A stretch of 64,000 nucleotides of DNA from Clostridium sp. (GTDB lineage Bacteria; Bacillota; Clostridia; Clostridiales; Clostridiaceae). Within the stretch, counting starts at the first letter, position 1; each line of letters begins with the position of its first letter. Both the position numbers and the translations under genes were made by a program. Below, piece after piece: positions 16,551-63,850 of the stretch. Location: assembly GCF_022773025.1 (NCBI RefSeq), contig NZ_JALEZF010000064.1; one strand, given 5' to 3'. Under the pieces are notes generated by a model that saw only the letters and a program-made list of their open reading frames with translations, was not told the origin of the DNA and did not search any database.

Positions 16551-16919
16551 ATGGAAAATATAGTTCAAGCTTTTAAAGCTTTAGGTGATGAGAACAGATT
16601 AAAGATTTTAATAATACTTTCTCAAAGGAGAATCTGTGGTAAGGGAATAGCTAGACATTTAGGGTTATCAGAAGCAGCAGTGTCTCAGCATTTGAAAATT
16701 TTAAGAGAAGCAGATTTGATTTATGGTGAGAAGCATGGATATTATGTTAATTACAATTTAAGAGAAGAAAAGCTTCAGGAATTAGCGGGATTTGTAGATT
16801 ACATAAGAGATAGCAGGCTTGGTAAAAGATGCTACATAGATACTAACATTCCAAATGATTGCAATATTGCATGCAAGGCAAATAAAAATAAATGTTGTAA
16901 AAGAATTAAGGAGGATTAG
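16551..16919 (+). CDS. ArsR/SmtB family metalloregulator with Cys-rich C-terminal tail
   Basis: Winged HTH (…LGDENRLKILIIL…CGKGIARHLGLSEAAVSQHLKILREADLI…). The tail carries CNIACKANKNKCC. Confidence 0.85.
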   Translation: MENIVQAFKALGDENRLKILIILSQRRICGKGIARHLGLSEAAVSQHLKILREADLIYGEKHGYYVNYNLREEKLQELAGFVDYIRDSRLGKRCYIDTNIPNDCNIACKANKNKCCKRIKED

Positions 16920-17347: not shown

Positions 17348-17419
17348 ATTTTATGAATAAATTTAGCTCAGGCAACAAAATATAGTTATATAACTTTACT
17401 ATATAAGGAGGACACACAT

Positions 17420-17920
17420 ATGAATAAGAGAAGAGTAATATCACTTTTCATGATTATGATACTATGTTTTGGAGTGACAGCGTCAGCAAAACCAGAAGAA
17501 AATAGAGGAGTAACCTTTATGGGAGAAGTAATAGAGGTGAAGAAAGATGGAGACAAGACTTCTCTTTTAGTTGAAGGATACTTAAAGGGATGCGATATAT
17601 ACAAAGAAAAACTTTTGGTACATATAACTGATGAAACTAAGATTAAGCTAGCTTGTGATGAAGAAGGCATGAAAGAACAAAAGGAAGATTGCAAAAAAGA
17701 AGAAAAAAGCCAAAATGTAAAGGACAGTAAAAAACAAGATGCAAAAGAAGAAAAGAAGCAAGATAGCAAAGACAGCAAGGATAAAGGAAACTCAGTTCAA
17801 CAAGTAAAGATAGATTTCACAAAAGGTGACACAGTCTTTATGGTATTAGATAAGGCTATGACAAAATCAATACCACCTCAAGTGAATGCAAAGTTCATCA
17901 AGGTTACAAAGGTTAAATAA
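17420..17920 (+). CDS. Secreted hypothetical protein with a K/E/D-rich low-complexity insert
   Basis: Signal peptide (…LCFGVTASA/KPE). Central repeats KKEEKSQNVKDSKKQDAKEEKKQDSKDSKDK. Strong AAGGAGG RBS. Confidence 0.55.
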   Translation: MNKRRVISLFMIMILCFGVTASAKPEENRGVTFMGEVIEVKKDGDKTSLLVEGYLKGCDIYKEKLLVHITDETKIKLACDEEGMKEQKEDCKKEEKSQNVKDSKKQDAKEEKKQDSKDSKDKGNSVQQVKIDFTKGDTVFMVLDKAMTKSIPPQVNAKFIKVTKVK

Positions 17921-45272: not shown

Positions 45273-46997
45273 ATGGGAGTGAGTAACATATTAGCAGATG
45301 CAACGGTAAATTTAATTTTAAAGTTACCGCCTGAATTAAGGGAAAGATTATATAAACTTTCTACGGAAGATGTGTTTATGCCAGGACAGGTAGAATTCAT
45401 AGTGATCTTTGGGGAAGAGGTAGAACTTGTAAGAGAATCTACACAAGAGTTTGGTGGAACTTTTGAAAATTTAGGATTTGGATATGGAATCATATATCTT
45501 CCGATTTTAAAAATAGACAATATCTTTAAAATAAAAGGGGTAGATTATGTTGAACTTCCAAAAATACTTTTCACATCCTATGCTGTAAGCAATAGGGTAT
45601 CTTGTGTCAATGAAGCATGGACTGCATATGGATTAAGTGGAGAAGGTGTACTGGTAGGATTTATAGATTCAGGTATAGATTATACACATCCGGCTTTTGA
45701 CGATGAGAATGGGAGAACACGAATAGAGTATATATATGATTTATCCCAAGGAGGAAAGGTATGGAATAAGGAACAAATTCAAAAGGCTATTGACTCGCCA
45801 AACCCACTAAGCGTAGTAGATGAGGTTGATGATAATGGACATGGTACCCATGTAGCAAGTATAGCATGTGGAGGTGGAAAAATAAGCCCTGTATATTATG
45901 GCCCTGCATACAAGAGTTCCATTGCGATGGTAAAAATAACTCCTAAGGGAAGCTTAAATATGGGAACAAGTACCCTTATAATGAGGGGAATTAAATTCCT
46001 TATAGATAAATCCAAGGAATTAAATAAGCCCCTAGTTATAAATTTAAGTCTAAGTACTAGTAGTGGTGCACACAATGGCAAGAGTTTGTTTGAGAAGTAT
46101 ATAGAAACAGTAAGTGCATTGGAGCCAATAGTTTTTGTAGCGGCGGCAGGAAATGATGGAGATACAGCTCAACATGTGGGTGGAATACTTAATGAAACAC
46201 AAGATATATCTTTGAATATATCTAAAGATGAATCAAGTATAGCTATACCTTTATATAAAGGATTACTAAGTAATATAAGCATTGAAATAATAAATCCAGC
46301 CTCACAAAGTAGCGGAGTAATAGAAGTTAAAGAAGATTTTTTTGATAGGCAGGTAGGAAATGACCGAGTTCTAATATACTATACAGGTCCGAAACCCTTT
46401 GATATAGACGGAGAAATTGTAATAAGTATGATTTCTCCAGAAAATCAATTCTTATTAAGTGGAGTATGGACTATTAGAATTAAATTGTTAAATAAATTAC
46501 CTAGTATATATAATATGTGGATTTCAGTAACAGCTAGTTTAAATAAAGAAACAAAATTTTTTAATCCTGATATATACAATACCTTAGGTATACCTGCTAC
46601 AGTTGAAAATGTTATATCTGTTGGAAGCTATAATCCTTTTACAGGAAATATATCATCTTTTTCTGGCAGAGGGTCTATAGCTAATCAAGTATTAAAACCA
46701 GATATAGTTGCTCCAGGAGAGAATATAGAGGCAGCAATTCCTAAAAGTAGATATGGAACTAAGACAGGAACATCTATGGCAACACCAGAAGTGTCGGGCA
46801 TATGTGCATTACTTCTAGAATGGGGGATTATTAAAGGCAATGATGTGATACTTTATGGAGAAAGGTTAAAGTACTATCTTGTCAAAGGGGCCAAAAGAGA
46901 AAGAACTGATGTAGTATATCCGGATCCTGTTTGGGGATATGGAGAAGTATGTTTAAATAATGCTCTGAATTTGTTAAAGATTAATAGGGGGAATTAA
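45273..46997 (+). CDS. cspB: Germination-specific subtilisin-like protease (CspB-like, S8 family)
   Basis: Catalytic triad present: GFIDSGID (Asp), GHGTHVAS (His), GTSMATPEVSG (Ser). Located in a csp-csp-sleC arrangement. Confidence 0.8.
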   Translation: MGVSNILADATVNLILKLPPELRERLYKLSTEDVFMPGQVEFIVIFGEEVELVRESTQEFGGTFENLGFGYGIIYLPILKIDNIFKIKGVDYVELPKILFTSYAVSNRVSCVNEAWTAYGLSGEGVLVGFIDSGIDYTHPAFDDENGRTRIEYIYDLSQGGKVWNKEQIQKAIDSPNPLSVVDEVDDNGHGTHVASIACGGGKISPVYYGPAYKSSIAMVKITPKGSLNMGTSTLIMRGIKFLIDKSKELNKPLVINLSLSTSSGAHNGKSLFEKYIETVSALEPIVFVAAAGNDGDTAQHVGGILNETQDISLNISKDESSIAIPLYKGLLSNISIEIINPASQSSGVIEVKEDFFDRQVGNDRVLIYYTGPKPFDIDGEIVISMISPENQFLLSGVWTIRIKLLNKLPSIYNMWISVTASLNKETKFFNPDIYNTLGIPATVENVISVGSYNPFTGNISSFSGRGSIANQVLKPDIVAPGENIEAAIPKSRYGTKTGTSMATPEVSGICALLLEWGIIKGNDVILYGERLKYYLVKGAKRERTDVVYPDPVWGYGEVCLNNALNLLKINRGN

Positions 46998-46998
46998 T

Positions 46999-48726
46999 AT
47001 GGATATAAAATTTGATACAGTGTCCGATAATAACAGTTTAAATGAGTGTGCTAAAAAGTTTTATGATAACGGTTATACTAGTGTTATAGCAGCATATTCG
47101 GGAGACTTAGTAGGAGCCTTAAAAAATATAGATTATGCCTGTGCATTCATAATAAATGATGATACTGCTGTAGTTATTGTAAAGATAGGGAAGGTTTATA
47201 GTCTTATAGATGATGTAAAAGAAATACGATATGTGGATGCTATAACTCCATTTACCTTAAATTATATTTCTCCCCTTGAAGCATCAAATATAACACCTTT
47301 TCATGACAATCCCTTTTTAAAACTTACTGGTAGGGGAGTTATAGTGGGAATTATTGATACAGGTATTGATTATTTAAATGAGGAGTTTATATACGAAGAT
47401 GATACTACAAAAATATTTGCAATATGGGATCAAAGTCTTCCAATTACACCAGGTCAAATAGATGTAGGACTTGGAAGCTATTATAACAGGGATGATATTA
47501 ATAAGGCAATTAAGCTTTATAAAGATGGTGGTGATCCTTATAGTATAGTTCCTTCTAAAGATGAGGTTGGACATGGGACAAAAATGGCTGGAATAATAGG
47601 AGGAAGAGGAAAAAATCCAGCATTTATAGGAGGGGCTCCTGACTGTGAATTTGTTGTAGTAAAGCTTAAACCAACATATGTTACAGACAAAGGGGAACCG
47701 GTATATACACCAGCAAGTATACTGTTAGCGCTTACTTTTTTTAATTCTTTACTAAAGAATCCAGATATTCCTCCTATTGTAGTGTATTTGCCATTAGGAT
47801 CTAATTTAGGATCTCATGATGGAAACAGTCTTCTAGATAAAAATATCGATAGGTATTCAGAAACCATAGGAACAGTTGTAGTTACAAGCACAGGTAATCA
47901 GGGGAACCAACAGGTTCATGTATCTGGAACTATAGAAAATACAGGTGATTCAAAAATTATCGAACTAAAGGTATCACCTACACAGAAAAATATAATAATG
48001 CAAATTTGGATAAAGAAGCCAGATAAGGTTTCGTTAAGTATAATATCACCATCGGGAGAAGTTATAGAGAAAATACCTGCGAAGCTTCAGAAGAATGAAG
48101 AGATAAAGTTTATATTTGAAGGAAGCACGGCTTATGTGCAGTACTTTATACCAGAAGAAATAACAGGTGATGAACTTATAAGTGTTGAAATAAAAGATAT
48201 AAGGGAGGGAATATGGCAGTTTAAGCTTATAGGAGACTATATTGCAGATGGTAGGTATGATGCTTATATTCCTCAGAGGGAACTTTTGGAAGGAGATACG
48301 AAATTTTTAAATTCAACTTCATCAACAACCTTGACACTACCTTCAGATGGCAGACAGATTATAACCACCTCATTTTATGACCAAAACAATAATGCCATAG
48401 TTGCAGAATCAGGAAGGGGGTATACAAGGGACAATAGAATTAAACCAGATATTGCAGCAGGTGGAGTGAATGCAGTTACTACATCGCCGGGAGGAGCGTT
48501 ATCTACTGTAACAGGTGGAAGTGTTGCAGCAGCAGTTGTGGCTTCAGCTTGTGCCCTCATATTTCAATGGGGGATAGTTGAAGGAAGAGATCCAAGGATA
48601 TATGCACCAAAGATGAAGACCTATTTAATAAGAGGTACAAATAAGAGAGAAGGAGAAACATATCCTAATCCTATATTGGGATATGGAACATTAGACTTAA
48701 AAGCTGTTTTCGAAAATATAAGATAG
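46999..48726 (+). CDS. Germination-specific subtilisin-like protease paralogue (CspA/CspC-like)
   Basis: GIIDTGID (Asp), GHGTKMAG (His), and TGGSVAAA (Ser retained, in a GGS rather than GTS context). N-terminus …YSGDLVGALKNIDYA… is typical of Csp prodomains. Confidence 0.75.
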   Translation: MDIKFDTVSDNNSLNECAKKFYDNGYTSVIAAYSGDLVGALKNIDYACAFIINDDTAVVIVKIGKVYSLIDDVKEIRYVDAITPFTLNYISPLEASNITPFHDNPFLKLTGRGVIVGIIDTGIDYLNEEFIYEDDTTKIFAIWDQSLPITPGQIDVGLGSYYNRDDINKAIKLYKDGGDPYSIVPSKDEVGHGTKMAGIIGGRGKNPAFIGGAPDCEFVVVKLKPTYVTDKGEPVYTPASILLALTFFNSLLKNPDIPPIVVYLPLGSNLGSHDGNSLLDKNIDRYSETIGTVVVTSTGNQGNQQVHVSGTIENTGDSKIIELKVSPTQKNIIMQIWIKKPDKVSLSIISPSGEVIEKIPAKLQKNEEIKFIFEGSTAYVQYFIPEEITGDELISVEIKDIREGIWQFKLIGDYIADGRYDAYIPQRELLEGDTKFLNSTSSTTLTLPSDGRQIITTSFYDQNNNAIVAESGRGYTRDNRIKPDIAAGGVNAVTTSPGGALSTVTGGSVAAAVVASACALIFQWGIVEGRDPRIYAPKMKTYLIRGTNKREGETYPNPILGYGTLDLKAVFENIR

Positions 48727-48806
48727 AAGAAAAAGTGTAATAAAATGGTAACACATTATTTTTTTTATCATATTATATAATGAAGCATTTTAAAAGGAGA
48801 TTGTTT

Positions 48807-50150
48807 ATGGCAACTGGATATTTAAAGGTTCAAGTTTTTGAAAATGACAGCTATGTGCCTATTGATAAAGCTAAAGTCACTATAACACCTGTTGGTGCAG
48901 AACAAGGAGCCAGTGATACTATTCAGACAAATTCATCTGGAGTTACAGATGTGGTAGAGCTAGATGCCCCACCAATAGCATTTTCTCAGAGACCATCAGA
49001 GCAGATACCTTATAGTTTTTCTGATGTTATGGTAGAGGCAGAAGGATACGCACCACAATTAATAAAAGGAGTTCAAATATATCCAGAAATAACGGCATTA
49101 CAACAATTGTTTCTAAAAAAAGATAAAGGTTTAACTAGACAAAACGAAACTATAATTATAATACAGCCTAACGTTTTAGTAGGTAACTATCCTCCTAAGA
49201 TACCGGAAGAACCAATAAAACCTATGCCAAAATCCACAGGACAAGTAGTCTTACCCAATGTTGTAGTACCAGAATTTATAATTGTACATGATGGTGGTCC
49301 TAATTCATCAGGTCCTAATTATACAGTTCCATTTCCTGAATATGTAAAGAATGTAGCCAGTAGTGAAATATACTCAACATGGCCTGAAAATACTATAAGA
49401 GCCAACGTAAATGCCATAGTTTCATTTACATTAAACAGAATATATACAGAATGGTATCCAAGTAGAGGTAAGGATTTTGATATTACAAATTCTACTGCTT
49501 ATGATCATGCTTTTAGTTATGGAAGAAATGTGTATGAAAATATAAGCAGAATAGTAGATGACCTATTTACTACTTATATAAAAAGAAGTGGAGTTAGACA
49601 GCCTCTACTTACTCAGTATTGTGACGGTGTACAAGTACAGTGCCCAGGGTGGATGACTCAATGGGGAAGCAAGTATTTAGGCGATCAGGGAAAAACACCT
49701 TATGAAATTTTAACTAATTACTATGGAAATGACATAAACTTAGTTACTGCAGAAGAAGTTGAGGGAATACCTAGGTCCTATCCTGGATATACCCTTGAAA
49801 TAGGTTCAACTGGACAACCTGTCATAACAGTTCAGACTTATTTAAATAGGATTTCTCAAAATTATCCATTGATACCTAAGGTAAGAGTGGATGGAATATA
49901 TGGAAATGATACAAAGGAATCAGTAAAGGTATTTCAAGGGATATTTGGACTTTCACAGACGGGCAATGTAGATTATGCAACATGGTATAAGCTATCTCAA
50001 ATATATGTAGGTGTAACTAAAATAGCAGAGCTTAGAGGACATGAAGAAGAGATAAGTCCAGTAGGAGCAAGAGATTTTTATCCACCATTAGGATTTGGGA
50101 ATCATCCTTTAAGCGATGTACCTAAAATAAAATATTGGGATGATTTATAA
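48807..50150 (+). CDS. sleC: Spore cortex-lytic enzyme pre-pro-form (SleC-like) with C-terminal peptidoglycan-binding domain
   Basis: Follows the csp genes. C-terminal PG_binding_1 repeat (…VDGIYGNDTKESVKVFQGIFGLSQTGNVDYATW…). I prefer the ATG at 48807 (AAGGAG RBS). Confidence 0.75.
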   Translation: MATGYLKVQVFENDSYVPIDKAKVTITPVGAEQGASDTIQTNSSGVTDVVELDAPPIAFSQRPSEQIPYSFSDVMVEAEGYAPQLIKGVQIYPEITALQQLFLKKDKGLTRQNETIIIIQPNVLVGNYPPKIPEEPIKPMPKSTGQVVLPNVVVPEFIIVHDGGPNSSGPNYTVPFPEYVKNVASSEIYSTWPENTIRANVNAIVSFTLNRIYTEWYPSRGKDFDITNSTAYDHAFSYGRNVYENISRIVDDLFTTYIKRSGVRQPLLTQYCDGVQVQCPGWMTQWGSKYLGDQGKTPYEILTNYYGNDINLVTAEEVEGIPRSYPGYTLEIGSTGQPVITVQTYLNRISQNYPLIPKVRVDGIYGNDTKESVKVFQGIFGLSQTGNVDYATWYKLSQIYVGVTKIAELRGHEEEISPVGARDFYPPLGFGNHPLSDVPKIKYWDDL

Positions 50151-52067: not shown

Positions 52068-52112
52068 AAATGGTGCTACAAAATATTTAATTATTTTGTA
52101 GCACCATTTTTT
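52068..52112. terminator. Bidirectional intrinsic terminator
   Basis: AAATGGTGCTACAAAATA...TATTTTGTAGCACCATTT forms an 18-bp stem between convergent genes. Confidence 0.88.
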
Positions 52113-53172
52113 ATCCTTTAGATTTTTTATTTGAGCGTATATAAAATAGTATAAGTTGTGATAGAAAGATTAGACTTAAAGCACCGAAGAAAGGATATAG
52201 TATGGAGATTAGTCGTCCAAAACCTATTTGTGATATAGGAATCGTCACTAAAAATACCAAGAATATTCCCTTCTTAAATGGAATTTTAAATCGTTCATCT
52301 AAGGTTTTACTTATACTGTAAATATCAGAAACTTGAGTTGAAAACATCTCACACCATATGACCATTAGTAGCATTATTTGAAGAGGTTTACCAAATCTAT
52401 TTGCTATATAGAGAAGAGGTATCTCATAGTTATAGATGTAGGGTTTGTTGAGCATAAGCATTATATTTAGAAAAATACACAACACCGTAAGTATGCCAGC
52501 TCCTATCGTAACTCCAGTGGTCAAAACTTTTGTATTCTTTATTTCCCTGCTTAATGGAACTAGAACTCCAGTACAGCTTAGGAGATTAAAACCTGTATAA
52601 AGCAGAGTTGATATAAACCAATTATCTTTTTCATGAGATATAGCAGTGAGATGAGGGATGGTTATTATATCTTTGTAGAAAAAAATATAAAGTGAAAATA
52701 TGGTGATTATTATAGTGATTAAGCAAGGAACTATAAAAGTGTTTATCTTTACTAATCCTTGAGTATCCTTTAGCAGAGTAGTGATGGTGAAAATCCCCAT
52801 TAAAATCATGCCCACCCATTTAGGAACTCCCAAAAATTGATTCAAAAGAGCTCCACTGGCTGCAAGAATTATAGAAGCACTGCTCAAAAGAAACAATGAA
52901 GTAATAAGTCCGGTTAGCTTTCCTAAAAAATTAGGGCTTACAAAGGTCATGAATTCGTTGTAGGATTGAAGATTGTACTTTACGCTTATTTTGCATACTA
53001 AAGATCCTATAAGTATGTAAAGTACTCCACATAAAAGAATCCCAAAGAAACTTGGAAATCCATAAGCAGCAAAAAAGTTTGTTATTTCTTTTCCAGATGC
53101 AAGACCAGCACCAACGATAGTTCCGACAAATACAGCTGCCAATTGAAAGATTAATCCTATCTTGTTTTTCAT
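52111..53172 (-). CDS. YkvI-family membrane protein (amino-acid-permease-like/GerAB-like fold)
   Basis: N-terminus …VFVGTIVGAGLASGKEITNFF… resembles B. subtilis YkvI. About 10-11 TM helices. Confidence 0.7.
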   Translation of the reverse strand: MKNKIGLIFQLAAVFVGTIVGAGLASGKEITNFFAAYGFPSFFGILLCGVLYILIGSLVCKISVKYNLQSYNEFMTFVSPNFLGKLTGLITSLFLLSSASIILAASGALLNQFLGVPKWVGMILMGIFTITTLLKDTQGLVKINTFIVPCLITIIITIFSLYIFFYKDIITIPHLTAISHEKDNWFISTLLYTGFNLLSCTGVLVPLSREIKNTKVLTTGVTIGAGILTVLCIFLNIMLMLNKPYIYNYEIPLLYIANRFGKPLQIMLLMVIWCEMFSTQVSDIYSISKTLDERFKIPFKKGIFLVFLVTIPISQIGFGRLISILYPFFGALSLIFLSQLILFYIRSNKKSKG

Positions 53173-53296: not shown

Positions 53297-54388
53297 GTGA
53301 AGAAAAAGTTTTTTCATTTTTTTTCAGTTGCTATTTTAGGTATTTTATTTGTTACACTTTCATCATGTTTCTCTAAAGGTAAAGAACCAGCAGAAGCTGA
53401 TATAGATGTATTTAAGAGTAAGGAGGTGATAGGTTTTGTTGACTCTTATATGGAGTGCCTGTTTAAGGGAGAATACTCAAAAGCGGAGGCAATGCACTTA
53501 GATGGAAATGATAGTTTTCAAAATGTAGAAGATAATTTGAAGATCATGGGATGGAAGACAGAAGAGGTTAGTAATGCTGTGGATGGTGCCATGGTAAAGG
53601 TTATGGTATGTAAAAGCTCAAAAGAAAATGTGGTATCAATCCTTGAGCGGTATGATATAAATGTAGAAAAGGATAATGAGGAATACAAGATAAAGAGTGT
53701 AAAGATATCAAAAGAAGAGGAGAGCTTTAAAGAAGGAGAAAATCTTAGAATAAGACAGAAAAATAATGTTAAGACAAATCTTCTCATAGACAAATCAGGG
53801 CTGCCTCAATATGTTTATCCTAAAGATGATAAGGAAAAGATTAAGGAAACTCAAATTTCACCTCAATCAGAATTTGCCTTAAGTGCATTTAATTATTCAG
53901 GAGAAAAGATAGCAGTATCAAGTGAAGACAAGGATGCTTTTATCTCAATAATAAAGATTGAAGAAGATTTAAAAGTTCAAGGAAAAGCCGATGATATGGA
54001 CAAAAAGGAAAAAGGAGACAGTAGTAATGATGATAAGAACAATGTAAGAGAAATTCCCATAGGAAAGGAAATAATCCCTCTTGATATTATAAAAGATTCA
54101 AAGATTGAACTTTTGATTTTTTCTAAAGATGAAAAGTTTTTAGCTGTTCAATATAAAGATTATGAAGGAACTACAAGAATTAGATGCTATAATTCCGATT
54201 CAGGAGATATTGTAGCAGAAGAGTTAGTGGATAAGTTTCCACCTGATATATATGATTTGCTCTTTGAAGGATTTGATGAAAGTAATTTGTATTTGAGTGC
54301 AAGAGCAAAGGAATACAATGATGTGGAAAATAAAGTTGCACCTGTATCGGTAAAGATTAATTTAAAAGACTTTAAGATTGAAAAATAA
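53297..54388 (+). CDS. Hypothetical lipoprotein
   Basis: GTG start after AAGGAG. Lipobox …TLSSC/FS. No recognisable domain; the central region is acidic and K-rich. Confidence 0.5.
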   Translation: MKKKFFHFFSVAILGILFVTLSSCFSKGKEPAEADIDVFKSKEVIGFVDSYMECLFKGEYSKAEAMHLDGNDSFQNVEDNLKIMGWKTEEVSNAVDGAMVKVMVCKSSKENVVSILERYDINVEKDNEEYKIKSVKISKEEESFKEGENLRIRQKNNVKTNLLIDKSGLPQYVYPKDDKEKIKETQISPQSEFALSAFNYSGEKIAVSSEDKDAFISIIKIEEDLKVQGKADDMDKKEKGDSSNDDKNNVREIPIGKEIIPLDIIKDSKIELLIFSKDEKFLAVQYKDYEGTTRIRCYNSDSGDIVAEELVDKFPPDIYDLLFEGFDESNLYLSARAKEYNDVENKVAPVSVKINLKDFKIEK

Positions 54389-56466: not shown

Positions 56467-56492
56467 TAGCCTTAAGGGAGATGAAGTACGAA

Positions 56493-57203
56493 ATGAAGGT
56501 TGATGTAGTAATATCAGCAGATCATATCAAAGAGGGAGAATTACAAGGAAAGATTGCGGTTGTTATAGACATGCTTAGAGCAACATCCGTAATGGTTACA
56601 GCCCTAGATAATGGCGCCACAAAAGTAGTACCATTCCTAACAGTAGAAGAAGCCTTTGATTACTCAAAGAAGCATGAGGGTCAAGTAATCCTAGGAGGAG
56701 AAAGAAAGGCAGTAAAAATAGAAGGATTTGATTTTTCCAACTCACCATTAGAATATACTAAAGAAGTGGTTGAGGGAAAAATTCTTGCTATGACTACCAG
56801 CAACGGAACTAGAGCCATAAAAGGCTGTACTGGTGCAAGCCATATATTTATTGCTGCTCTGCTTAATGGAAAAGCCATATGCAGAAAACTTCAAGAGTTA
56901 AATGAAGATGTGGTTATAGTAAATTCAGGAACTATGGGTCAATTTTCTATGGATGATTTCATATGTGCAGGTTATATAATAGAAACTTTAACAAAACATA
57001 ATCCTAAAATTGAACTTTCAGATATAGCTAAGACAGCAAAATATATATACGAAAATAATAAGGACATAGATTCTTTCATAAAGAATGCACGTCACTACGA
57101 TATCCTAAAATCCTTAGGACTTTCAGGAGATTTGCAGTATTGCATGAAAAAGGACATCATAGATAGGACACCAGAATATATTGACGGCGAGATAACTATA
57201 TAA
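56493..57203 (+). CDS. comB: 2-phosphosulfolactate phosphatase family protein
   Basis: …VVIDMLRATS…GGER….GFDFSNSP…SNGT… are motifs of the ComB family. The start is either 56493 or 56481. Confidence 0.8.
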   Translation: MKVDVVISADHIKEGELQGKIAVVIDMLRATSVMVTALDNGATKVVPFLTVEEAFDYSKKHEGQVILGGERKAVKIEGFDFSNSPLEYTKEVVEGKILAMTTSNGTRAIKGCTGASHIFIAALLNGKAICRKLQELNEDVVIVNSGTMGQFSMDDFICAGYIIETLTKHNPKIELSDIAKTAKYIYENNKDIDSFIKNARHYDILKSLGLSGDLQYCMKKDIIDRTPEYIDGEITI

Positions 57204-57235: not shown

Positions 57236-57289
57236 TTATTGAAATTAAGAATTTAGGTAAGTTTGAAGAGAGAAAAAAATAAAACTTTT

Positions 57290-57340
57290 AAGGGATGTAA
57301 CATGATTTTGTGTAAACAAATCTTATACATCCCTTTTGTT
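57290..57340. terminator. Bidirectional terminator between comB and arsM
   Basis: AAGGGATGTA...TACATCCCTT forms a 10-bp stem with a structured loop. T-run on the plus strand and A-run (a T-run on the minus strand) on the other side. Confidence 0.7.
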
Positions 57341-57352
57341 GATTAATGGATT

Positions 57353-58144
57353 TTATAATTTTGTTGCTTTTATTGATGCAGACATAATATACTCTCCAAC
57401 TTTTAAATTATGTGCCCATTTCTCTGCATATTCCTTTGAAACCTCTTTTGTTTCAATTAAAATATCACTAAAGCCAGCTTTTTTTAAATATACTTTTAGC
57501 TCTTCAACTGAAGAAGCTCCAGTAACTCAGCCACAATAAAGCTTCTCATCTTGCTTCATTTCTTCTGTAAGTTCTTTGATAAGGACGATATCAGAAATGG
57601 CAACTCTGCCACCACGTTTTAATACACGATAAGCTTCATTATAAACCCTTTGCTTATTAGGTGATAGATTTATAACGCAATTGGAGATAATTACATCTGC
57701 TGTATTATCAGCTACGGGAAGATTCTCAATCTCTCCCAATCTAAAATCTACATTTTTGTACATATATTTTCTACATAGAAGTCGTGACTTTGTAATCATC
57801 TCTGGAGTCATATCAACTCCAATTACATAGCCATTAATTCCAACTTTTTTTGAAGCTAGAAAACAATCGAATCCACCGCCGCTTCCAAGATCTATAACAG
57901 TTTCTCCATCTTTAAGATCAGCTATTAATTGAGGATTTCCACAACCTAACCCCATGTTAGCTTCTTCGGGAGTATTTAATATTTCCTCATCAGAATAACC
58001 AATTTTACGTGATATTTCTAGTGGAGAATTTTCAAGCTTTAGATTTCCACTACAGCATCTAGATTTATCCGTATTCTGTAGAGCTATTTTGCTATAACTA
58101 TTTCTAACAGCATTTCTTACATCTATCTTTTTAAAATTACTCAT
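57353..58144 (-). CDS. arsM: ArsM-type SAM-dependent (arsenite) methyltransferase, predicted selenoprotein (UGA at 57527-57529 read as Sec)
   Basis: SAM motif VIDLGSGGGFD. Conserved Cys at CCSG, GLGCGNP and SNCVINL. The frame continues for 57 codons past the in-frame TGA into a family-typical C-terminus. A SECIS-like hairpin follows the UGA. ATG at 58144 with GGAGGG RBS. Confidence 0.7.
57498..57518 (-). promoter_or_regulatory. SECIS-like hairpin 8 nt downstream of the in-frame UGA
   Basis: mRNA AGCU(U)CUUC-AGUU-GAAGAGCU: an 8-bp stem, a single bulged U, and a tetraloop containing GU. Confidence 0.6.
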
Positions 58145-58210
58145 ATTTCCCTCCAAGTTATAATTTGCTTTAAATCTAATATAATATAGAAGTTTGCTTA
58201 TTTGAATATT

Positions 58211-58440: not shown

Positions 58441-58935
58441 TTAATTAGATGCAATAGGAGGTAGATCATAATTTTCAATTACTTCATCTATTAAAGAAAG
58501 ATAAGCTACCATATTTTTTTTATCTTGTTCGTTAAAATCAGAAGTTCTAGATTTATCTTTAAGATACAGTTGTTCTAGATATATAGTATGGGCTTGTGAC
58601 CACATAGAATGATATTTTTTCATTTTATCTATTCTTGATATATTAAAGATGCCATTTAAGTTTTCGCTGTCTTTAATAATTTTCTCCATTTTATTACGGT
58701 TAATTTGATCAAGAATATCTTCGGACTTTATAATTTCTATGTTGGGATATGAGTCAACCATTTTTTTATAAACAGTATATTCTAATTTGGCATTAGTATA
58801 AAATTCATCGATAAAATCTTTTTCTAATTGTTCGGCCTTTATAGAAGCCTCTTGCTTATAAGAATAGCTTTCATAAAGTGGGACAAACAAGATGAGAATT
58901 GCAACAGTACAAATTAAAAGAACTTTCTTTTTCAT
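58441..58935 (-). CDS. Hypothetical membrane-anchored protein (164 aa)
   Basis: ATG at 58935 with AGGAGGA RBS. N-terminal TM anchor (KKVLLICTVAILILFVPL). The remainder is helical with no recognised family. Confidence 0.5.
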   Translation of the reverse strand: MKKKVLLICTVAILILFVPLYESYSYKQEASIKAEQLEKDFIDEFYTNAKLEYTVYKKMVDSYPNIEIIKSEDILDQINRNKMEKIIKDSENLNGIFNISRIDKMKKYHSMWSQAHTIYLEQLYLKDKSRTSDFNEQDKKNMVAYLSLIDEVIENYDLPPIASN

Positions 58936-59081
58936 AGTCATCCTCCTAACTTTATAATATGTATATACTAAAATATACGAAATATAAAGAAGTAAAGTAA
59001 CATGAAATTTAAATTTTATAATTAAAAAATAACATAAAGACAAAGTTATGTGAAATATTAACCTAAACTTTGCGCTATATC

Positions 59082-59142: not shown

Positions 59143-60327
59143 TTAAACCACTTGGAATATATAAAATTTTAAATAATAAGATTCATCTGAGTTCCAAAGT
59201 ATTGGATGGTCAGCACTTTGGGTTCTGAATTCAACTTGTCTTATAGATCTTCTAGCATCCATAGCAGCTTCCATGATAGTAGCTTTTAATAAATCTTCTT
59301 TCATGAAGTGTGAGCATGAGCAGGTTACAAAATACCCATAAGGCTTTACCATCTTAAGCCCTCTTAGATTGATTTCTTTGTAACCTCTTTTAGCTCCATT
59401 TACAGTGTTTCTAGACTTGGTGAAAGCTGGAGGGTCAAGTATAACTACATCGAACTGCTTTCCTTCTTTAGCCCACTGTGGAAGAACATCAAAAGCATTG
59501 TGGCATTGGAATTTTACAGTGTCTTGAAGATTATTAAGTTCTGCATTTCTTGTAGCACAATCTACAGCATGCTGAGATACATCAACTCCAAGGACTGATT
59601 TTGCACCTGCTATACCAGCATTTAAGGCAAAGGAGCCTGTGTGAGTGAAGCAGTCTAAAACTGTAGCATCCTTACATATTCTATGTATGGCAGCTCTGTT
59701 TTCCTTTTGATCTAAGAAGAAACCGGTCTTTTGTCCATTCTCTAAATCAACTAAATATTTAACTCCATTTTCCACAATTTCAATGTCAGTTGGGAATGGG
59801 TCAGTTAGGAATCCTTTTGTTTGAGAAAGACCTTCAAGCTCTCTAGAAGCTATATCACTTCTTTCATAAACGCCTTTTCCGCCAAAATCATTCATAAGGA
59901 TATCTACGATTATATCTCTGTATTTGTCCATACCTAGAGAAGATATTTGGATAACGTAGTAATCCTCATATTTATCTATAGTAAGTCCAGGAAGAAAGTC
60001 AGCTTCCCCAAATACAAAACGACAGCTTGAAGTATCTATAACTTTTTTTCTGTAATTCCAAGCAGCCTCCATACGTCTTTTAAAGAAATCTCTATCTATT
60101 TCTTCATTTATGTCTCTAGTCATCATTCTGATAGTTATCTTTGAAGCATCATTTATGTAACCTTTACCTATGAAGTTTCCTTTAAAATTATAAACTTCAA
60201 CTATATCTCCATTGGTGTATTCCCCATCGTACTCGTTAATCTCATCTGTATATATCCATGGACATCCATTTTCCGCTTTACGGCCTTTGCCCTTATGCAA
60301 GTAGAATTTTGATGACAATAAGCTCAT
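59143..60327 (-). CDS. rlmI: Class I SAM-dependent 23S rRNA (cytosine-C5) methyltransferase, RlmI/YwbD-like (PUA + MTase)
   Basis: …GHPWIY… PUA-like N-terminus. SAM motif VLDCFTHTGSF. DPPAF catalytic motif. The start is uncertain: the ATG at 60327 abuts the RBS, and the TTG at 60318 has better spacing. Confidence 0.85.
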   Translation of the reverse strand: MSLLSSKFYLHKGKGRKAENGCPWIYTDEINEYDGEYTNGDIVEVYNFKGNFIGKGYINDASKITIRMMTRDINEEIDRDFFKRRMEAAWNYRKKVIDTSSCRFVFGEADFLPGLTIDKYEDYYVIQISSLGMDKYRDIIVDILMNDFGGKGVYERSDIASRELEGLSQTKGFLTDPFPTDIEIVENGVKYLVDLENGQKTGFFLDQKENRAAIHRICKDATVLDCFTHTGSFALNAGIAGAKSVLGVDVSQHAVDCATRNAELNNLQDTVKFQCHNAFDVLPQWAKEGKQFDVVILDPPAFTKSRNTVNGAKRGYKEINLRGLKMVKPYGYFVTCSCSHFMKEDLLKATIMEAAMDARRSIRQVEFRTQSADHPILWNSDESYYLKFYIFQVV

Positions 60328-62492: not shown

Positions 62493-62511
62493 TTAATTAT
62501 TATAAATATTT

Positions 62512-62600
62512 GAACAGGGGAGCTTGTATTGCAGGCTGAGAGGAAGTAATCAACTTCGACCCTTACACCTGATTTGGATAATGCCAACGTAGGAAGTGAT
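62512..62600 (+). promoter_or_regulatory. TPP (THI-box) riboswitch aptamer
   Basis: …GGGGAGC…GCUGAGA…ACCCUUACACCUGAUUUGGAUAAUGCCAACGUAGGAAG… matches the THI element core (CUGAGA, ACCUGAU, GGAUAAUGCC). Confidence 0.92.
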
Positions 62601-62616
62601 CGACATTTGCTTTTTC

Positions 62617-62683: not shown

Positions 62684-63850
62684 GTGGAAAAATCAAAAAC
62701 TTCAACTCTAAGTAATGCATTGATTTGGTTCGGTGCAGCAGTATCTATTGCAGAAATACTAACAGGAACATTAATTGCTCCTTTAGGATTTTCTAAAGGT
62801 CTTGCAGCAATAATTATTGGACATGTTATAGGCTGTGCTTTACTATACTTTACAGGAATTATAGGAGCGCAAACTGAAAAGAGCTCTATGGAAACAGTAA
62901 AGATTTCATTTGGGCAGAAGGGATCTCTATTGTTTTCTACTTTAAATGTTTTGCAGCTTGTAGGATGGACGGCTGTAATGATTGTAAGCGGTGCAGCAGC
63001 GGCAAGCTCTGTTTATAATATAGGAGGAGACTGGGTATGGAGTATTGCTATAGGTGTTCTTATCGCTCTTTGGGTTATCATAGGACTTAAGAATCTTGGA
63101 AAGCTTAATATGATAGCTATGGGTGGACTATTTATCTTGACTATAATACTTAGTACAGTAATCTTCAAAGGGAATGCAACAGTTGTTTTAGAACAAGGCA
63201 TAAGTTTCGGAGCAGCAGTGGAACTTTCAGTTGCAATGCCTCTTTCGTGGCTTCCGCTTATCTCAGATTACACTCGTGAAGCGGCAAAGCCAAAGCAAGC
63301 AACTCTTGTGAGTTCAATAGCGTATTTTTTAGTTAGCTGTTGGATGTATGTAATAGGAATGGGAGCTGCTATATTTACAGGTGAAAGCGATATAGCAAAG
63401 ATAATGATGAGCGCAGGTCTTGGCATAATTGCAGTAATCATAATCATTTTTTCAACTGTTACAACAACTTTTTTAGATGTTTATTCTGCAGGGGTTAGCT
63501 CTGAGAGTATTTCAAAGAAGTTAAAGGAAAAGCCAGTTGCCATAGCAGTATGTGCTATTGGAACGCTACTTGCTATATTCACTCCAATAACTCAATATGA
63601 AAACTTTTTATATCTAATAGGGTCCGTATTTGCTCCTATGATTGCAATATTAATCACCGATTTCTTTATTCTAAAGAAGGATCATACAGGGGAAACGGTA
63701 AGTATTATCAATGTAGTTATATGGGCAATAGGATTTGTAGTGTATAGAATATTTATGACCATAGACACACCGCTAGGAAACACACTGCCTGTTATGGTTA
63801 TAATATCAATACTTTGCATGGTGGCTAATAAAATATTTAGGGATAAATAA
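62684..63850 (+). CDS. cytX: Putative hydroxymethylpyrimidine transporter CytX (NCS1 family)
   Basis: 388-aa 12-TM protein. N-terminus …NALIWFGAAVSIAEILTG… is typical of CytX. Directly controlled by a TPP riboswitch. GTG start. Confidence 0.8.
   Translation: MEKSKTSTLSNALIWFGAAVSIAEILTGTLIAPLGFSKGLAAIIIGHVIGCALLYFTGIIGAQTEKSSMETVKISFGQKGSLLFSTLNVLQLVGWTAVMIVSGAAAASSVYNIGGDWVWSIAIGVLIALWVIIGLKNLGKLNMIAMGGLFILTIILSTVIFKGNATVVLEQGISFGAAVELSVAMPLSWLPLISDYTREAAKPKQATLVSSIAYFLVSCWMYVIGMGAAIFTGESDIAKIMMSAGLGIIAVIIIIFSTVTTTFLDVYSAGVSSESISKKLKEKPVAIAVCAIGTLLAIFTPITQYENFLYLIGSVFAPMIAILITDFFILKKDHTGETVSIINVVIWAIGFVVYRIFMTIDTPLGNTLPVMVIISILCMVANKIFRDK

Follow-up and report, generated by a model that had tools for sequence, protein, structure and literature searches.

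The DNA analysed here is a stretch of 64,000 nucleotides from Clostridium sp. (contig NZ_JALEZF010000064.1 of assembly GCF_022773025.1), called the window in what follows, and the subject is an arsM-type gene on its minus strand whose reading frame is interrupted by a UGA codon. An earlier note on this DNA had read the gene as a selenoprotein that was cut short in the program-made list of open reading frames (ORFs). It is very probable that the locus encodes a 263-residue arsenite methyltransferase of the ArsM/AS3MT family that contains selenocysteine (Sec) and in which the UGA codon is recoded. The evidence consists of membership in the protein family, the match of the UGA codon to a conserved cysteine, the conservation of this codon and of a translated tail behind it, a synonymously constrained hairpin compatible with a selenocysteine insertion sequence (SECIS), and the ars gene context in relatives. 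The features of the gene are listed below.

57353..58144, minus strand: full-length arsM-type coding sequence of 263 codons plus stop, with ATG at 58144-58142, an in-frame UGA (predicted Sec206) and TAA at 57355-57353
58149..58154, minus strand: Shine-Dalgarno sequence GGAGGG, 4-5 nt 5' of the ATG at 58144, read from the sequence
57941..57943, minus strand: Cys68 (GLGCGNP)
57677..57679, minus strand: Cys156 (SNCVINL)
57533..57535, minus strand: Cys204 (C-G-U), two residues before the predicted Sec206
57527..57529, minus strand: UGA codon, predicted Sec206, in the motif LYC-G-U-VTGA
57353..57526, minus strand: C-terminal module after the UGA, 57 residues plus stop (VTGASSVEEL...EYAEKW...VGEYIMS)
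57498..57518, minus strand: SECIS-like hairpin AGCU(U)CUUC / AGUU / GAAGAGCU, with the stem 8 nt and the loop 17 nt past the UGA
57501..57514, minus strand: conserved core of the hairpin, UCUUC-AGUU-GAAGA, 5 bp and a 4-nt loop, which also encodes Ser-Ser-Val-Glu-Glu
57273..57335, minus strand: probable intrinsic terminator, a 10-bp perfect stem (57335-57326/57299-57290) with an inner helix, followed by the U-rich UUAAAAGUUUUAUUUUUUU
57336..57539, plus strand: spurious 67-residue ORF that mirrors the conserved C-terminal extension on the antisense strand

The minus-strand ORF of the list (58156..57527) ends at the TGA at 57529-57527, directly after ...QDEKLYCG. The continuation in the same frame reads VTGASSVEELKVYLKKAGFSDILIETKEVSKEYAEKWAHNLKVGEYIMSASIKATKL; it begins with VTGASSVEELKVYLKK, ends with SIKATKL and comprises 57 more codons before the TAA at 57355-57353, exactly as had been described. 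The end of the listed ORF at the TGA was likewise correct, while its TTG start at 58156 was not retained, as this codon overlaps the Shine-Dalgarno sequence. The true start is almost certainly the ATG at 58144, because GGAGGG lies 4-5 nt upstream of it and because homologues begin with MSNFKK or MSDFKK. The plus-strand ORF at 57336..57539 had already been regarded as the antisense shadow of the extension, and this was upheld since the arsM frame on the opposite strand evolves under purifying selection.

An open frame of this length is not expected behind an ordinary stop codon of the window. With a G+C content of 32.9%, the window uses TGA rarely as a stop, namely in three of the 43 ORFs of at least 200 residues, the truncated arsM ORF being one of the three. 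Window ORFs of at least 60 residues with a TGA stop could be extended in frame by a median of 17 codons, and arsM was the sole real gene with an extension of at least 30 codons, the two other candidates being antisense shadows; an extension of 57 codons by chance is therefore excluded. No further credible TGA read-through gene was found in the window.

The hairpin of the probable terminator begins 18 nt past the TAA and has a folding energy of −17.3 kcal/mol (z = −3.34), which was matched by none of 200 shuffled sequences. A comparable terminator signal after the TGA was not detected by folding and inverted-repeat analysis. A simple terminator scan restricted to loops of 3-8 nt came back empty-handed, missing the terminator because its loop is long. 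A second inverted repeat (57229-57240/57278-57289) overlaps the T/A-rich flank of the terminator and is located between arsM and the convergent plus-strand gene of a ComB-family protein, which ends at 57203; the region between these two genes may serve as a bidirectional terminator.

Protein family and arsenic-binding residues

For the family searches the read-through product was scored with Cys standing in for the UGA-encoded residue. It matched the NCBIfam model NF008823 'arsenite methyltransferase' with 326.3 bits (cutoff 263), residues 6-262 covering positions 4-267 of the 272 profile positions. Since the match reaches position 267, the tail behind the UGA belongs to the normal architecture of the family, in agreement with the earlier note, which had taken the extension for the normal C-terminal module of arsenite methyltransferases dependent on S-adenosylmethionine (SAM). 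A class I SAM methyltransferase domain was also recognized by Pfam (Methyltransf_31 with 1.2e-38, furthermore Methyltransf_11 and Methyltransf_25), the SAM motif DLGSGGG is present, and the surrounding VIDLGSGGGFD is invariant among homologues. The predicted function is that of a SAM-dependent methyltransferase of trivalent arsenic, As(III).

The best matches among solved structures, obtained with phmmer, were human AS3MT (8xt7) and ArsM of Cyanidioschyzon merolae (CmArsM; 4fr0, 4kw7), and residue correspondences to CmArsM were obtained by counting along the 4fr0 chain. In these alignments the UGA codon occupies the column of Cys224 of CmArsM and of the equivalent Cys of human AS3MT, Cys68 corresponds to Cys72 and Cys156 to Cys174; Cys68 and Cys156 are both invariant in homologues. 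In CmArsM, As(III) is bound by three cysteines, Cys72, Cys174 and Cys224, and the last of these has its counterpart in Cys206 of human AS3MT. All three ligand positions are thus occupied in the window protein, by C68, C156 and UGA206, the third with a predicted Sec instead of Cys.

The placement of the UGA at the last conserved ArsM cysteine, as originally proposed, was hence borne out by the column of Cys224 in 4fr0 and by Cys at the same place in 8xt7 and in diverse representatives. The accompanying statement that the other conserved cysteines are present as Cys held for C68 and C156, while an equivalence of the CCSG motif with Cys44 was not shown by the alignment: C30/C31 of this motif are nearly invariant in homologues and lie upstream of the aligned region, and Cys44, a fourth conserved Cys of CmArsM that is disulfide-linked to Cys72, falls opposite L42 in the phmmer alignment, where the N-terminus aligns unreliably.

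The UGA codon and the tail across relatives

A genomic scan with one genome per species yielded 49 loci. TGA was found at the predicted Sec codon in all 45 close loci (L001-L044 and L047), each with a conserved open frame of 56-59 codons behind it. These loci belong to Clostridium (C. botulinum, C. sporogenes, C. subterminale, C. tepidum, C. argentinense, C. magnum and others), Tissierella, Desnuesiella, Sporosalibacterium, Hathewaya, Desulfotomaculum, Dehalobacterium and further Bacillota. Termination of close homologues at this point, which the earlier note had named as a finding that would speak against its reading, was therefore not seen. Cys is present at the UGA column in the distant homologues from Anaerolineaceae (L045), Saprospiraceae (L046) and Betaproteobacteria (L048). 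Additionally, 1.84 billion cluster representatives were searched at the protein level and the best 150 matches were examined. About 119 of these reach the UGA column and have Cys there, with the single exception of P0276, which has Gly in a poorly aligned C-terminal stretch; the rest of the best 150 matches have W at the column, end exactly there or stop short of it. Upstream of the TGA, pairwise comparison with the window gene gave a ratio of nonsynonymous to synonymous substitution rates (dN/dS) of 0.066 (140 codons), and behind it one of 0.108 (55 codons). The tail is therefore both translated and subject to purifying selection.

Most public records treat the TGA as a genuine stop, so that a truncated methyltransferase of 205 residues would be made and the 57 downstream codons would be an untranslated remnant. 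Among them are the GenBank records from C. botulinum and C. sporogenes (P0056, P0065, P0101, P0106), in which the 'arsenite methyltransferase' is truncated at 205-211 residues. Some termination at UGA alongside Sec insertion is general for bacterial selenoprotein mRNAs and probably takes place here too. As an account of the locus, however, a genuine stop is very unlikely, because the tail stays open in every one of the 45 loci across genera in spite of an AT-rich background, has a dN/dS of only about 0.11 and fits the ArsM profile all the way to the end. Moreover, the truncated product would be devoid of the third As(III) ligand (the Cys224 equivalent) and of the end of the fold, and the terminator sits past the TAA and not past the TGA.

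Decoding of the UGA without selenium, either by a genetic code with TGA as Trp or by near-cognate read-through inserting Trp, Cys or Arg, would be in line with the full-length products with W at the site that callers gave for metagenomes. The 'full-length' close homologues of 252-275 residues (P0001-P0041 and similar) all have W at the site, and those of 263 residues were for this reason rejected as Cys forms. The W calls are a caller artefact on short low-GC contigs: the caller used the table with TGA as Trp (table 4), and the W-bearing homologues are therefore more instances of the same TGA. Within the window, other long ORFs terminate at TGA, and under table 11 the long ORFs are intact. Furthermore, the aligned residue in relatives is Cys and never Trp, related clostridia are known users of Sec, and simple read-through leaves unexplained why a conserved, synonymously constrained hairpin is located at SECIS distance from the codon. 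Selenium-free decoding is accordingly given as little credence as a genuine stop. That standard gene callers would mishandle the gene had been anticipated, and both kinds of error, the GenBank truncations at 205-211 residues and the reading of TGA as Trp in metagenomes, were encountered.

The least probable explanation is a pseudogene, with the TGA due to a sequencing error or to recent mutational inactivation of a TGC or TGT Cys codon. It would require one base change and could point to the frameshifts in one relative (L047, Clostridioides mangenotii), but it is effectively refuted by the comparative data: the same TGA occurs in 45 independent genomes and many metagenome contigs, the gene is otherwise undisrupted, and purifying selection acts before the TGA as well as after it. 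In this relative (L047:6001-6754) the TGA is kept and the coding sequence is split across three frames, which reflects either frameshifts in a decaying copy or assembly errors.

The hairpin downstream of the UGA codon

The criteria for bacterial SECIS (bSECIS) elements comprise a loop of 3-9 nt, an upper stem of 4-16 bp, a distance between UGA and loop of 16-37 nt and a minimum free energy of −7.5 kcal/mol or lower, with a G within the first two loop positions that is mostly followed by G or U (PMC13188914). The window hairpin lies at 57498-57518, 8 nt past the UGA, exactly where it had been placed before. It has an AGUU loop, a spacing of 17 nt and an 8-bp stem with a bulged U, and its minimum free energy is −8.1 kcal/mol when 25 nt are folded and −10.4 kcal/mol with 39 nt; every one of these features lies within the bSECIS limits. 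Among homologues only the 5-bp core is conserved, and the bulged U and the lower stem are not kept. The five pairs of the core are 99-100% paired in 38 distinct sequences, with a compensatory change in one locus (L043, UCC...GAG) and a mismatch in another (L025); a sixth pair forms in 11 of the 38.

The stronger argument comes from synonymous variation. When 94 five-codon windows of the gene were ranked by normalised synonymous entropy, the two lowest values (ranks 1-2) were those of codons +4 to +8 and +5 to +9 counted from the UGA, directly over the hairpin. Of the eight conserved Ser columns, the two with the least codon variation are Ser+5 (TCT in 43 of 45 loci) and Ser+6 (TCA in 40 of 45), and Val+7 varies least among 13 Val columns, whereas the codons of the neighbouring Gly+3 and Ala+4 vary freely. 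This pattern indicates a constraint on the RNA besides that on the protein. Suppression of synonymous variation was preferred as the argument because covariation is too thin to prove the structure; thermodynamic significance as stand-alone evidence for the hairpin was rejected on account of z-scores between −0.5 and −1.6. The earlier description of SECIS hallmarks is accordingly retained in so far as the bSECIS criteria and the suppressed synonymous variation are concerned, and amended in that the 8-bp stem with its bulged U is specific to the window and only the 5-bp core is conserved.

Compared with the SECIS element of the Escherichia coli fdhF type and the bSECISearch consensus, the hairpin is alike in being a stem-loop just past the UGA within the coding region, in the GU of its small apical loop and in the spacing of 17 nt. 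The bulged U is a further shared feature, in this window's version only. The hairpin differs in that its conserved part is much shorter (5 bp); binding of SelB to it is predicted.

From these features the following course of events may be proposed. SelB and Sec-tRNA(Sec), recruited by the stem-loop with the AGUU loop 17 nt downstream, would recode the UGA at 57529-57527, so that Sec would stand in for the third As(III)-binding Cys, the equivalent of Cys224 in CmArsM and of Cys206 in human AS3MT. The ribosome would then read on across the C-terminal module of 57 residues until it meets the TAA at 57355-57353, and the transcript would end at the hairpin and U-tract just past this codon. The protein would bind As(III) among Cys68, Cys156 and Sec206 and pass methyl groups to it from SAM. 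Judged from the sequence, actual insertion of Sec and arsenite methylation activity are likely, and the source genome is predicted to encode selA, selB, selC and selD.

Several observations weigh against recoding of the UGA as Sec. The hairpin is thermodynamically ordinary, with z = −1.6 for 25-39 nt and −0.5 in its 66-nt context, and the folding energy of the conserved 5-bp core reaches no more than −3.5 to −6.4 kcal/mol in many homologues, short of the −7.5 kcal/mol asked for. Of the five core pairs, four are without any variation, so that support from covariation amounts to the one event in L043, and conservation of the hairpin is confounded because the same bases encode the conserved SSVEE. 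A scan of the whole window at Rfam gathering thresholds gave a thiamine pyrophosphate riboswitch as its only match and no SECIS family, though Rfam may hold no general bacterial SECIS model. In the 64 kb of the window, none of the ORFs with a family match is selA, selB or selD, and no tRNA, tRNA-Sec included, was detected. Finally, the window arsM is solitary and is not accompanied by the adjacent arsR that is common in its relatives. In favour of recoding, the related C. botulinum is documented to use Sec codons (10.1101/2022.07.06.499078).

Genomic surroundings and place among known selenoproteins

In 28 of the 45 relative loci a gene of an ArsR-family regulator (PF01022) is located directly upstream of arsM on the same strand. 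In five of the 45 this place is taken by an ArsC of the low-molecular-weight protein tyrosine phosphatase type (PF01451), and in four an ACR3/SBF transporter gene (PF01758) is found nearby. Regulation of the window arsM may differ, since arsR, ArsC and ACR3 genes are not adjacent to it. Its neighbours and the nearest ArsR-like ORF are the following.

56481-57203, plus strand: ComB-family phosphatase, downstream of arsM and convergent with it
58441-59043, minus strand: 200-residue ORF without family match, upstream of arsM
59143-60327, minus strand: RlmI, upstream of arsM
16551-16919, plus strand: nearest ArsR-like ORF (PF01022), 41 kb from arsM and 36% identical to the arsR product beside arsM in L013

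The ArsR-family gene at 16551-16919 is immediately followed by a gene for a small protein with a dinitrogenase iron-molybdenum-cofactor-binding domain (PF02579; 16922-17293, plus strand), and no link of this pair to arsM is known. The family scan of the window covered ORFs of at least 120 residues, with 17386-17778, 17420-17920, 52111-53172 and 53297-54388 either not scanned or without match. No grd or prd gene was among the window ORFs that gave family matches. The remaining content of the window is housekeeping in character: carAB, lacZ, a two-component system, genes for electron transfer flavoprotein and for oxidases dependent on flavin adenine dinucleotide, catalase, and csp/sleC-like germination genes. 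The latter form a cspBA(C)/sleC-like spore-germination cluster at 45273-50150 (plus strand), which consists of two subtilase genes, one of them with a CspB prodomain, and a following gene for a protein with a peptidoglycan-binding domain; this cluster and the G+C content of 32.9% are in keeping with a Clostridium host. A thiamine pyrophosphate riboswitch (Rfam RF00059, 69 bits) at 62506-62612 on the plus strand stands directly 5' of a CytX-type hydroxymethylpyrimidine transporter gene (62684-63850, plus strand), which is an ordinary arrangement.

The arsenite methyltransferase with Sec is a family that has been catalogued since 2007-2008, and the window gene is an ordinary member of it. A catalogue review of 2022 lists arsenite methyltransferase (NF008823/PRK11873 arsM) with the motif UxxG and the representative WP_011987699.1 as 'experimentally verified', with reference to Fomenko et al. 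2007 Science 315:387 (PMC9312934), and the UxxG family is also included among the prokaryotic selenoproteins of a catalogue review of 2026 (PMC13188914). In the Global Ocean Sampling data, 'arsenite S-adenosylmethyltransferase' was represented by 8 sequences with Sec and 245 with Cys (Zhang and Gladyshev 2008 PLoS Genet, PMC2398784). The novelty that the earlier note had implied is thus to be withdrawn.

As in the catalogued family, the window protein scores above the NF008823 cutoff, its motif U-V-T-G conforms to UxxG, and a predicted Sec replaces the conserved catalytic Cys. Its clostridial origin is shared too, the close relatives being proteins from C. botulinum and C. sporogenes that bear the name arsenite methyltransferase, and the identity to other family members is approximately 80-91%. 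Judged by profile and motif, nothing substantive sets it apart besides the missing adjacent arsR.

With the Cys-type enzymes CmArsM (4fr0, 4fs8, 4kw7) and human AS3MT (8xt7) the window protein has the class I SAM fold and the aligned As(III) positions in common. In contrast to these, it has a predicted Sec for Cys224 and an extra Cys at position −2, and with 263 residues, against approximately 380, it does not include their C-terminal domain.

The ArsM-fusion selenoproteins NF041537 (ArsM/AhpD), NF041536 (ArsM/DUF2284) and NF047649 (MTase/UXPK-star) likewise combine an ArsM-type domain with a UxxG Sec site, whereas the window protein is without fused AhpD, DUF2284 or UXPK and consists of a single domain with one predicted Sec. 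The exception models for these fusions gave partial matches over residues 2-229 with 142-157 bits (cutoffs 460-575), and membership among the ArsM-fusion double selenoproteins was rejected on the grounds of these scores and of the single-domain, single-UGA architecture.

The extra Cys beside the predicted Sec may be the only detail worth following up. Cys is found at −2 in 45 of 45 TGA loci, as C-N-U instead of C-G-U in Hathewaya, and at −1 in a second putative Sec lineage, in which P0256 reads 'LAC-W' and P0247, P0274, P0283 and P0287 end in '...AC' or '...SC'. Only about 10 of the approximately 119 Cys-form representatives have Cys at −2 (approximately 8%; these counts are uncorrected for relatedness). 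The catalogues (PMC9312934, PMC13188914) give only the motif UxxG and not the neighbouring Cys. Tentatively, Sec-type ArsMs might work via a vicinal Cys/Sec pair rather than by a simple exchange of Cys for Sec, although we consider this to be rather unlikely. If it were true, a co-evolved selenenylsulfide could protect or redox-gate the arsenic-binding Sec and perhaps do some of the work of the Cys44-Cys72 disulfide relay in canonical ArsM.

Because the selenoprotein family has been on record since 2007-2008, the result corrects an annotation rather than being a discovery, and it will not surprise a selenoprotein specialist. Its practical meaning lies in the correction of a gene that the ORF list, many GenBank records and metagenome catalogues misrepresent. 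For the biology of the family, the locus would add one more case in which Sec replaces a metal- or metalloid-binding thiol in anaerobic Firmicutes, and it bears on the methylation of arsenic in the anoxic gut and in anoxic sediments as well as on the interplay of arsenic and selenium.

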